64,000 nt of DNA from Candidatus Nomurabacteria bacterium RIFCSPLOWO2_01_FULL_41_18. GTDB lineage: Bacteria; Patescibacteriota; Minisyncoccia; Phycocordibacterales; UBA9973. The notes below the pieces were generated by a model, which worked only from the letters and a program-made list of their open reading frames with translations, ran no database searches and was not told the origin of the DNA. Shown here in pieces: positions 20,984 through 23,900 of this stretch. Made by a program: the position numbers and the translations under genes. Within the stretch, counting starts at the first letter, position 1. Each line of letters opens with the position of its first letter. The stretch covers positions 242,315-306,314 of the forward strand of contig MFUZ01000006.1 of assembly GCA_001785865.1 (NCBI GenBank), given 5' to 3'.

Positions 20984-23900
20984 TTAAAGAGCAGGTTCAG
21001 CTCCGACGTTGTCAGTCGGAGTTCCGACCTCTGGATCTGCCGGAGCTTCGGGAGTGGTTGGATCAAGTGTCGGAGGATCTTCTGGCTCTACTACCACTGG
21101 ATCCACTATAACTTCGGACTCCCCCTCGCCTTCACCAGGAGAGGGTTGGGGTGAGGTTGGTTCCGGTTCTGGCTCTGGCTCTGGTTCTGGCTCTGGCTCT
21201 GGTGCCTGTTCAGGTAGAGGGGTAGATTCAGGTTCAGGAGTTGGGTCTTCAGCCGAAGGCTGATCAGCCTCTGGCTGAGGCGTAGGGTCCGGTTCTGGAG
21301 AATGTGTAGGAGAAACATTTTGATTTTCTAACAAGGCTTTCAAAGATTGCAACTCTGCGCGATTCAAACACACCGCTTCCTCCCCTGGCTCCGTCAAACA
21401 AACCTCGCCCGTAAAGATGCGAGCGATACGATTCTCCACATTCGCAAACCAAGCAACCAAGCTATCCCTCCAGCTATTTTCTTTTTCAAAATTATTTAAC
21501 TCTTCAAAATCTTTAATTTTCAACCCCAAATCGTCAATTTTGGCGTTTGTAGCCTGAATTCCGAGCACCATATAACCCAGAGTGTTGACAGGGTTCACAA
21601 CAGTGCCTCCATAATGCATTGCCCAAGGGGCTTCATCGGCCATCACACCGACGTATTCGGTCAGAGTGTCCCCCGTGCCCTTGCCTTCTTTGTAATGGAA
21701 GCGGTAAATTGGAGTTCCGAGAATTTGAGTCAAGATTTCATTTGGATCAGTGACTGTGCCTAGGATGTTTTTTTGATCACGAGAGCTGGCAGCCGCCGCC
21801 CAAGTCAAAACTCCATCGCCGGCAACATCCGTAAGTTGAGTTCCGCCCGCGCCGACGGCTGGAGGCAAGGAATAAGTGATGTCCGCGTCTTGCGCCACCG
21901 CTTGGAAAGCGGAATAGTTGGTTCCTGAAGCGGAAGGCTCCAAGAAACGCAAGCCGGTGGCAGTGGTTCCACCTCCGATGTTTATAAGATTTCCGCTAGG
22001 GATCAGAGTTAGACCGCCAGCGCTAGTGGTCAACAAGTCGGCGTAATTCGCGGCCGAACCATCCGCATCATTGTAAGTTAGACGAAGATTTACCCCGGTG
22101 GCAGAGTTAATATCTAAAACTCTGCCGGGAACCGTCGTACCGATCCCGACGTTGCCTCCGATTGGGTTTAATAATAGAGGATATGTTAGTGCAAGGTTAC
22201 TAGAATTAGTGGATTGCAACCACCCTCCTGCTCCACCGTTTTGTCCAATATCCAATACACCCGTGTTGGCCGTATTGCCGATTCTTGCCACACCAGTTTG
22301 AGAACTACCACTTGAGGCTGGTAGACTGTTTGAACCAGAGACTTCAAATTTCTGAGTTGGCCCCGCCGTCGTCCCTATGCCCACATAACCAGAATTGAGG
22401 ATCGTCATCCTCTCCGTCAAAACCGAAGGCGCAGCGTTGGTGCCAGTCCAGAAAGATAATTGTCCAGGGACTCGGCTGTCAGCAATAGTGCCAGAGGAGA
22501 TGCCTTTGATGGCGGCGCCTGTGATGTAACCAGCGGCTCCGCCATAACCTGTGAAGTTGATGACTCCGAGTTCATCGGCGGTGGTGATGACCGTCGGACT
22601 GGCTCCAGTGCCTCTGGCTTTCCTGAAATTCACATCAAAGCTGTCAGCGGAAGCGTTGGCTTGAGTGAGATAGGTCTTTCCCAAATCAACTGTGTCGGAG
22701 GAAACATGCAGTAATCCTGCTGGTACCGTCGTCCCAATGCCGACGTTGCCGGAAGAATCTATCCTGAGCTTCTCAGTATTATTAGTACCTAAACTGATAA
22801 AACTATTTTCTCTGTTCCAAATATAGGCGCCACTATCACTCCAAGATTGAATGACGAGCCCGTCTGTTGCAGCGTCGCCGACATTTGTATTTGTTAAATG
22901 AATTTCTGAAGTAGCAGCTCCACCAATATGTAATAATCTAGCCGCAGAGACAGTCGCCGGACTAGAAATACCGATGCCGACGTTGCCCGAGCTATCTATA
23001 ACGACCCTCTGAGCTATACTATTAGTGCCAAACTCCATCCTGTTATCAGCCGCATTGTAAAGAACTCTTCCTCCATAATCAGGTGTTCCATAACCAGTAT
23101 CGTTCGTTGATGATGGAGTAAAATCAACCCACATACTACTTGCACCGTGGCTTCTTAGTTCAATACCACTATAATTATTAGTCCCTGTTCCACTATTTAC
23201 AATTTTAAGCATTGGCGAGTTAGCCACGGTGTCATTTTTTTCAATATGTAATAAACTAAGTGGCTCCGTCGTCCCGATGCCGACATAGCCACCGTTTGGT
23301 TGTAATGCCAAGGGTAGCGTTGTTTCTGCACTGTCAGCATAGCCAGATTGAATCCATCCATAATATAATCCATCGACATTTTCATTATTATAGGTTCCCA
23401 TATTCAACGCAGGACCTCCGCCACCATCATTCTCAAAAATAATTCCCGTATCCATTGAACCAGTTGCAGCTGGTATTCCACCGGCGCCAACAATATGCAA
23501 GACGCTCTGGGGCAGTACCGTCCCGATGCCGACCCTTTGGGAACTATCTATTGTAATTGCGGCGATATTAGCAGTAAAAAAAGTTAAAGGGACACTAGCG
23601 TTCATCCCCAAAAACCCTTCTGAATTTACTCCAGAAAATTCATTATAAGTTGAACCGCTGATTCCAAAACGCATAACATCATCAACGTCGTTCGCAATAT
23701 TCACATAAGATTCATACGAGCCATCAGTCCCGTATAATCCATTAAAATACGCTACTGGATTATTAGTTGCAACTCCTGTATCACTAGAAATATGAAGCGG
23801 ATACCCCGGCGCCGCCGCCCCGATGCCGACGTTGCCGGTGCTAACCTGCTGGTACATATTACCAAAAGTAAATAAATCATTATCACTTACCCCCAAACCC

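Follow-up and report, generated by a model that had tools for sequence, protein, structure and literature searches.

How a short hairpin-like segment came to lie inside the gene for a giant surface protein, and whether it does anything there, is the question raised by a stretch of 64,000 nucleotides from Candidatus Nomurabacteria bacterium RIFCSPLOWO2_01_FULL_41_18 (contig MFUZ01000006.1, positions 242,315 to 306,314). This whole stretch is called the window below, and its coordinates are counted from its first letter. The gene in question (20984-25261, minus strand) encodes a 1425-aa repeat-rich surface or fibre protein of Patescibacteria (Paceibacterota/Nomurabacteria-like). A preliminary description of the window had placed the segment in the Pro/Glu-rich C-terminal tail of this protein, where we indeed find both the string and the open reading frame (ORF), and had regarded it as a copy of a palindromic element also present in lepA and leuS. 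Our analysis confirms the copy and identifies it as the BoxC/PIT/TMECO "intrastrand triplex" motif, a hairpin followed by a mirror-repeat third block. It is very likely a solo copy of this motif tolerated in the fibre gene as an in-frame, translated passenger. In other bacteria the motif is physically linked to DUF559 genes, which inverted copies bracket in a fixed order, including inside essential genes.

The string CCCCTCGCCTTCACCAGGAGAGGGTTGGGGTGAGG is located at 21122-21156 on the plus strand. It belongs to a 39-nt, 13-codon unit (21119-21157) that is in frame with the fibre gene and is read on the minus strand as TSPQPSPGEGEGE; in the frame of the minus-strand ORF the tail here runs ...EPEPEPTSPQPSPGEGEGESEV... 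/ ...PEPEPEPTSPQPSPGEGEGESEVIVDP.... In plus-strand letters the copy consists of three blocks, S1 (CCCTCGCC, 21123-21130), S2 (GGAGAGGG, 21138-21145) and S3 (GGGGTGAGG, 21148-21156). A 7-nt loop separates S1 from S2, which form an imperfect hairpin with seven of eight positions paired, and the dinucleotide TT separates S2 from S3. The S3 core, GGGTGAGG (21149-21156), becomes GGAGTGGG when reversed and fits S2 at all eight positions by the purine-motif rule (G.G, A.A, T.A). The word "palindromic" used in the preliminary description is therefore apt for the S1/S2 hairpin and inapt for the third block, which mirrors the second and lies outside the palindrome. As single-stranded DNA the fibre copy folds no better than its shuffles (z = -0.13); this and the other fold z-scores are from ViennaRNA and model hairpins only, not triplexes.

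Written as a structured pattern in which 24 bases are fixed, the element is CCCTCNCC-N(3-9)-GGAGAGGG-N(1-4)-GGGGTGAGG. It matches the window at exactly three sites, 14900-14933 in lepA, 21123-21156 in the fibre gene and 28873-28904 in leuS. None of 100 dinucleotide shuffles of the whole window contains a match, and 200,000 shuffles of the fibre tail alone (20984-21320) never produced even the 3' half, GGAGAGGG-N1-4-GGGGTGAGG. A repeat search groups the fibre copy with 14898-14938 and 28871-28911 (family D5). A profile hidden Markov model (HMM), trained on 135 copies from other, unrelated genomes, recovers the three copies at E = 3e-8, 1e-5 and 4e-5, the fibre copy at 1e-5; beyond these it is significant, weakly, only for a partner copy in lepA. 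All three host genes lie on the minus strand and the G-rich strand of the motif on the plus strand, so the C-rich strand is the sense strand. Every copy in the window is inside an ORF, in frame and free of stops, and the three exact matches share the central frame CCC TCT CCT (Pro-Ser-Pro, PSP).

Pattern, repeat family and HMM agree on a common block order among the three copies, and both sets of shuffles rule out a similarity limited to low-complexity CT/AG runs. With the same three blocks, order, strand and central frame, the fibre segment is a copy of the lepA/leuS element, as had been proposed. Since the third exact match lies in the fibre gene, the accompanying statement that the element is not confined to housekeeping genes also holds.

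Identity, distribution and tolerance of the motif

The BoxC repeat has been described since 1992, and its function is unexplained. In its TMECO form in Escherichia coli it follows the pattern 5'-CCCTCNCCC-N3-6-GGGNGAGGG-N3-GGGNGAGGG, with 9-nt blocks (Holder et al. 2015, PMC4666352); the older names, BoxC (1990s) and PIT element (2000), are cited in the same paper. TMECO sequences adopt a purine-motif intrastrand triplex in vitro (PMC4666352), and an alternative reading is a switch between G-quadruplex and hairpin (Kaplan et al. 2016, PMC5100583). The 23 copies in E. coli K-12 are all intergenic (PMC4666352). Previous work found no association with mobile elements, linked the motif to local genomic variability and rearrangement, and left its function unknown (PMC4666352, PMC5100583). 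A strict TMECO census counted 262 proteobacterial genomes, and earlier PIT work also included Synechocystis and H. influenzae (PMC4666352).

The fibre copy has the same three-block core in the same order: a C-rich block, its complement after a 3-9-nt loop, and a G-rich block after 1-4 nt. Its third block mirrors the second in the manner of G.G-C, A.A-T and T.A-T triplets. The window copies thus share with BoxC/PIT/TMECO the blocks CCCTCNCC/GGAGAGGG/GGGGTGAGG and their order, a T or G at the variable position N, the mirror relation of blocks 2 and 3, and an interspersed multi-copy occurrence that includes inverted pairs, as in lepA. They differ in having blocks of 8 nt rather than 9, in lying within ORFs whereas the K-12 copies are intergenic, and in their patescibacterial host. 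Because the blocks are 8 nt long, the strict TMECO regular expression has no match in the window on either strand; each fibre block agrees with its strict counterpart at eight of nine positions and differs at the outermost one. Among 140 copies from other genomes, 67 conform to the strict expression. The variable position is T in 125 and G in 13 of these foreign copies; the G form is that of the lepA copy, the fibre copy and the E. coli BoxC beside ycjD.

The mirror relation is kept across sequence variants. Thus, for S2 and S3, respectively, GGAGAGGG is matched by GGGGTGAGG, GGGGAGGG by GGGTGGGG, GGAGAAGG by GGATGAGG and GGGGAAGG by GGATGGGG, while a direct-repeat rule for the two blocks almost never fits. 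This covariation supports a constraint that would act on the three-block structure or on a protein reading it. As a BoxC variant the fibre copy is novel, being coding, built of 8-nt blocks and hosted by a candidate phylum.

A scan of one genome per species found the pattern in at least 120 stretches. The listed matches come from Pseudomonadota (Pseudomonas, Xanthomonas, Enterobacter, Acinetobacter), Bacteroidota, Chloroflexota, Planctomycetota, Cyanobacteria, Verrucomicrobiota, Bifidobacterium and others, and among them only a core of about 32-37 nt is conserved, with unrelated flanks. In IMG/VR viral contigs the motif is likewise found in at least 120 stretches, and 4410 of 5426 complete E. 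coli genomes contain BoxC-related sequences. The element is therefore not particular to the Nomurabacteria genome or to the candidate phyla radiation, the same motif being found across many bacterial phyla. The fibre copy is equally close to the lepA copy and to one from a Prevotellaceae genome (L037), so the kinship of the three copies within one genome is unusable as evidence. What appeared to be a lineage-specific palindrome is one of the most widely distributed short repeats of bacteria.

Why the copies sit in genes may be explained by their coding properties. When the C-rich strand is read as sense, each frame is free of stops in 94-99% of the 140 copies; for the G-rich strand the share is 54-73%. 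Other low-GC genomes carry the motif inside genes for an Eco57I-type methylase, a CN hydrolase, a Nuo/Mrp subunit, HsdR, Dus, Tex, the LspA tail and LeuRS, and elsewhere it is found in genes and intergenic DNA, in both orientations and several frames. Such a distribution would be produced by a filter and not by targeting: a dense AT-rich genome would keep only copies that are in frame (of a length that is a multiple of three) and stop-free. The survivors would sit in permissive loops or disordered tails, where they are harmless, and would simply be translated into a Pro/Ser/Gly-rich filler peptide. Frame conservation indeed suggests that the units are translated, the predicted peptides being TSPQPSPGEGEGE, LTPNPSPGRRGG and LTSPQPSPERRGG. 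The repeat can apparently live in both essential and surface-protein genes as a translated 13-codon insert. In the fibre protein it most probably adds 13 residues to an already disordered tail and has no host function.

The history of individual copies can be followed in two syntenic relatives, L285 and L286 (GCA_964366775.1), which have the gene order leuS ... fibre ... MurJ-ABC-lepA. The fibre gene site is filled in the window and empty in both relatives, so the fibre copy is specific to the lineage of the window. Three sites are seen in leuS. Site A, at the CP1 hinge, is filled only in L286. Site B (YW / VDWY) is filled in the window and in L285, with an identical peptide, and is empty in L286, where it is represented by a clean 39-nt gap. 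Site C is empty in the window and filled in both relatives. The lepA site is filled in the window and L285 and is not covered in L286. Close relatives thus differ by gains or losses of single 33-39-nt units at several sites.

The leuS copy of the window (28867-28905, minus strand) is a 39-nt in-frame unit read as (L)TSPQPSPERRGGN. It contains a perfect 9-bp hairpin, CCCTCTCCT/AGGAGAGGG (z = -2.7), and forms a 15-residue insertion (LTSPQPSPERRGGNT) relative to LeuRS of Thermus thermophilus. The lepA copy is a back-to-back pair (14863-14933, minus strand) that reads LTPNPSPGRRGGSFSPQEKAGDE; a variant copy in the (-) orientation, CCTTCTCC/GGAGAAGG/GGGGGATGAGG (14863-14895), abuts the (+) copy at 14900-14933. 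The inverted pair folds as one strong structure (z = -4.2) and amounts to a 19-residue insertion (TTHLTPNPSPGRRGGSFSPQE) relative to EF4 of T. thermophilus; L285 contains the orthologous pair, and so does LepA of related Paceibacterota. Between the window and L285 the leuS genes are 69% identical in DNA and the motif is identical at 31 of 32 positions; for lepA the values are 77% and 31 of 34. Better conservation of the motif than of its host gene points to constraint at the DNA level or to homogenisation among copies. A candidate target-site duplication around the leuS copy, AAATACTGG/AAATACGGG, was rejected, as its 47-nt spacing breaks the frame and the empty allele of L286 is a plain 39-nt gap. 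The LeuRS of L286 (4324-7302, 992 aa) also contains an in-frame NUDIX domain.

Association of the motif with DUF559 genes

YcjD, the DUF559 protein of E. coli, has been described only by prediction, as a Vsr-like PD-(D/E)XK nuclease (PMC1189080). We collected an unbiased sample of 80 metagenomic loci, picked by similarity of the DUF559 protein alone. The motif lies within 250 nt of the gene in 55 of the 80 loci and on both sides in 30. The nearest upstream copy has the (+) orientation in 37 of 39 loci, at a median gap of 56 nt, and the nearest downstream copy has the (-) orientation in 41 of 46 and in most cases extends into the last codons of the gene. Canonical units of the form (+)motif-DUF559-(-)motif number 28; they span 397-529 bp, the median being 449 bp. 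About 100 copies fall within the 38 kb near the genes, compared with 11 in the remaining 224 kb. This order, with its fixed orientation and spacing, makes the copies look like terminal repeats and not like random neighbours. In the loci from the genome scan, each DUF559 gene found lies between or beside motif copies (L012, L015, L046), and the bracketed architecture is seen in L012, L015, L046 and L341.

Some of these cassettes reside in frame within other genes. One example is provided by LeuRS of Cytophagales (L035, 6629-7083), where a motif-DUF559-motif block occupies the CP1 hinge (Pfam E = 6e-35). Others are found inside MetRS (L015, 1777-4515; L167, 290-3235), HrpA (L143, 1547-5209) and a DNA methylase (L165, 824-5011). 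In the in-gene cassettes inspected, Pro/Ser/Gly-rich peptides encoded by the motif flank the nuclease domain. A Pfam search of the cassettes in LeuRS, MetRS and HrpA detected DUF559 and the host domains only, with no intein or intron.

In E. coli K-12 (L124), ycjD adjoins fabI (envM), which we take to be the gene next to the original BoxC. The stop codon of ycjD falls within a degenerate hairpin, and a full BoxC lies in the ycjD-fabI spacer (4160-4240), about 180 nt downstream of ycjD. A single DUF559 query shares 60-80% identity with proteins of this family sourced to WOR-3, Aminicenantia, Nitrospirae, Brocadiales and Desulfobacterales, and such identity across phyla suggests horizontal spread. 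In viral contigs with the motif, only two DUF559 genes lie near it among the matches listed, and both are motif-flanked. We found no published link between DUF559 and BoxC/TMECO in the literature searched, which left most subscription journals uncovered, so prior art is possible.

A possible explanation is that the motif serves as the terminal repeat and recognition structure of selfish cassettes of about 450 bp, which encode a YcjD-type DUF559 (Vsr-like PD-(D/E)XK) endonuclease, and that solo copies are miniature non-autonomous derivatives of these cassettes. We assign this tentative reading a probability of roughly 0.45. The cassette enzyme would act in trans to move or copy solos and pairs, much as the associated transposases (RAYT) do for repetitive extragenic palindromes (REPs). 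Stop-free ends that encode Pro/Ser/Gly linkers would let both the cassettes and the 33-39-nt solo copies colonise coding genes in frame, without splicing. Aminoacyl-tRNA synthetases, LepA, HrpA and the fibre gene would all be hosts of the two forms, with the copies in the window at the miniature end of the spectrum. The fibre copy itself is a solo motif of the same 13-codon size as the leuS unit and does not have the architecture of a DUF559 cassette (~400-530 bp).

Several points weigh against cassette ends mobilised by a nuclease. The part of DUF559 in mobilisation is one that we infer from sequence. By tblastn, neither the 64-kb window nor the L285 and L286 contigs show any similarity to DUF559, and the 120 best homologues of a low-GC DUF559 protein include none named as patescibacterial. 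Of the more distant DUF559 genes in viral contigs only 1 of 80 is accompanied by the motif, so the link holds only for the YcjD-like subfamily. No target-site duplication or other transposition signature is seen at leuS site B, the sole clean empty/filled site. In the fibre gene the ends of the insertion are not definable against an empty allele, because the homologue tails compared are unalignable low-complexity Pro/Glu/Thr-rich sequence. Finally, no stable triplex was detected in vivo for TMECO, nor any promoter or terminator activity (PMC4666352).

If cassettes do spread in this manner, they would represent a splicing-free way for selfish DNA to reside inside proteins, and a nuclease that recognised hairpin or triplex DNA would add a new type to the structure-specific enzymes of mobile elements. 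The old BoxC/TMECO puzzle gains a testable partner, YcjD, which lies beside BoxC in E. coli and whose relatives are bracketed by the motif in many phyla.

Further observations concern the ycjD region and the DUF559 subfamily. A partial duplicate of the 3' end of ycjD lies between ycjD and BoxC. Similarity to the K-12 sapF-ycjD-fabI region breaks off some 35 nt away from BoxC in about 2000 of the 5426 E. coli genomes, and in one genome the match to this region ends at about the BoxC boundary. In a DUF559 subfamily from WOR-3, Nitrospirae, Brocadiales and others (homologues P0241-P0360), the C-termini are PPLTPPIKGGE, PPLNPLPSREGR or PSHQGRG. Judged from the proteins and not from their DNA, these ends look as if they were encoded by other C-run/G-run hairpins, and nuclease subfamily and end motif may co-vary.

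Alternative explanations and comparable systems

The main rival reading, which we regard as unlikely, is that the motif has spread without any dedicated enzyme. Its hairpin or triplex would stall replication or provoke breaks, and copies would be pasted through template switching, gene conversion or the repair of gaps and double-strand breaks from ectopic copies; DUF559 genes would then be frequent neighbours, inserting, for example, at such sites. The clean 39-nt insertion in leuS without a target-site duplication agrees with such a process, as does the window without a nuclease gene by the tblastn search, and the better conservation of the motif than of the host gene would fit homogenisation by conversion. 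Moreover, the motif has been tied to local instability and to polymerase arrest in vitro (PMC4666352). An enzyme-free process is, however, at odds with the ordered bracketing of DUF559 genes and its orientation (37 of 39 upstream, 41 of 46 downstream). The same 8-9-nt blocks across phyla, together with DUF559 proteins that are 60-80% identical, also argue for a common recognition partner that spreads horizontally.

A REP-like element moved by a RAYT or IS200-type Y1 (HUH) transposase acting on hairpins is improbable. Short size, high GC content, multiple copies and a hairpin are features of such repeats, and L286 does have a Y1_Tnp (IS200-like) gene (1003-1662) close to leuS. This gene is flanked by hairpins of a different repeat family, CCAGCGGTTGAACCGCTGG, and no Y1 transposase is encoded in the window. 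In the 80-locus sample it is the DUF559 genes that the motif brackets. REPs lack the third mirror block, and the copies considered here lie within genes and not between them. The cassette reading nevertheless resembles the REP/REPIN and RAYT system in that many non-autonomous hairpins would correspond to a rare protein gene, itself bracketed by inverted copies. The differences are that DUF559 is a Vsr-like PD-(D/E)XK nuclease whereas RAYT is a Y1 HUH transposase, that a third mirror block is present and that coding regions are tolerated. Neither a Y1 gene flanked by the same repeat nor an extragenic location, both characteristic of REP/RAYT, was found for the copies in the window.

Marginally less probable still is a selected role in the fibre gene, as a hot spot of recombination and variation, a transcription pause or a flexible protein linker. 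The copy does occupy the most variable part of a surface protein, and TMECO sites in E. coli are tied to local rearrangement (PMC4666352). A host function is made unlikely by the fibre genes of L285 and L286, which lack the copy, and by the presence of the same motif in housekeeping genes of other kinds and between genes, in either orientation and in several frames. Even without the copy the tail is a Pro/Glu linker. A chance product of low-complexity CT/AG-rich coding sequence, which the biased composition of the tail might suggest, can be dismissed given the empty shuffles of window and tail, the shared block order, the HMM score and the near-identical Prevotellaceae copy.

Returning to the fibre segment as a passenger copy of BoxC/PIT/TMECO, the closest precedent for its way of life is provided by the Rickettsia palindromic elements, likened here by description only. 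In both cases short palindromic repeats lie in frame in conserved genes of a reduced genome and are, or appear to be, translated. The Rickettsia elements are about 100-150 bp long, are known only from Rickettsia and have their own consensus; they are not known to have a mirror third block. The window unit, in contrast, is 33-39 nt long, its core is pan-bacterial and its host belongs to Patescibacteria. Miniature inverted-repeat transposable elements are defined by terminal inverted repeats and a target-site duplication, whereas a single hairpin with a mirror block is observed here. Homing endonucleases of inteins and introns come with splicing domains or an intron, for which 39 nt leaves no room.

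For the cassettes, a precedent for a mobile-element nuclease of the Vsr fold is provided by Vsr-like EDxHD homing endonucleases, such as I-Bth0305I (Dassa et al. 2009, PMC2677866; Taylor et al. 2011, PMC3239194). Together with inteins they also illustrate selfish elements in frame in essential genes, for example, those of aminoacyl-tRNA synthetases. In contrast, DUF559 is another family, and its cassettes have no splicing domains and appear to be retained in the host protein via Pro/Gly linkers.

Host gene, other inserts and repeats in the window

Homologues of the fibre protein are named "tail fiber domain-containing protein" or hemagglutinin, and many contain PF13884 (Peptidase_S74). In the window protein this domain was considered for the C-terminus and rejected, as the match at residues 1162-1211 is sub-threshold (E = 0.097); cleavage of the tail is therefore not relied on. 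The closest homologues have variable tails that lack the motif. The tail of the window protein is biased in composition (GC 0.52), with repeated CCAGAG/CCGGAA codons. Further upstream in the gene, at 22100-24660, diverged internal repeats spaced by about 240-600 nt surround a conserved CCGTCGTCCCGATGCCGAC; they are the DNA of the recurring "GNVGIGT" beta-strand repeat.

Short inserts of other kinds are found in housekeeping genes as well. In lepA, a possible decayed GC-rich insert, RLPRSGNGRGEGAS (14675-14713, minus strand), adds nine residues relative to EF4 structures. Its HMM match is weak (E = 30) and it is too decayed to classify; LepA of relatives has other GC-rich inserts at this site, LPAQAGGG or LPRPRDGRGE. 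LepA proteins of Paceibacterota/Nomurabacteria relatives (homologues P0122-P0240) have 600-671 residues. In many of them the loop after "MEY" contains motif-encoded peptides (LTPNPSPGRRGG, TSPQPSPERRGG, LTPSPSPYKGEGG and others), and some carry different GC-rich insert families there. The variation in length arises from several short-insert families at a handful of loops, namely NYHPALKGTPPQQGGEDSSPPKLGGVPEG, PARNATHSVAGG, L[PS]AQAGGG, PSTSSGQAGKR and the motif studied here.

A possible related hairpin family is represented in fmt (ORF 56000-56857, plus strand), where CCTCCCCCTTATCAAGGGGGAGG is followed by GTGCCGAAAGTGGTAGGG at 56558-56610 (plus strand) and is read as TPSFLPLIKGEVPKVVG. This insert extends about eight residues beyond the solved Fmt structures. 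Its peptide class, PLxKGEVPKAEGV, also occurs in LepA of relatives, where a third block, GGAGGGGG, mirrors GGGGGAGG; from these sequences it looks like a second triplex-type insert family. Small in-frame inserts seem to be a general feature of Paceibacterota/Nomurabacteria genomes. They are relevant for the annotation, alignment and modelling of proteins from candidate phyla, which are peppered with such inserts.

A search of the window against Rfam detected four tRNAs only and no RNA family at any copy of the motif. Two further palindromes were observed outside the motif family. An AT-rich one, TTACGTAATGTATTACGTAATACATTACGTAAC, lies between convergent genes at 10097-10148 and 56839-56892 and looks like a shared bidirectional terminator or another small repeat. 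The other, TGTTGATAAATTCTGCATATGCAGAATTTATCAACA, is 36 nt long and occurs at 33282-33317, with a second copy at 33928-33963 that is 86% identical. The gene flanked by these copies (33323-33961) was considered as a RAYT candidate and rejected, as it encodes a 212-aa PaaX-like regulator (PF20803); the two 36-nt palindromes could be an operator/terminator pair or the ends of a small unit.

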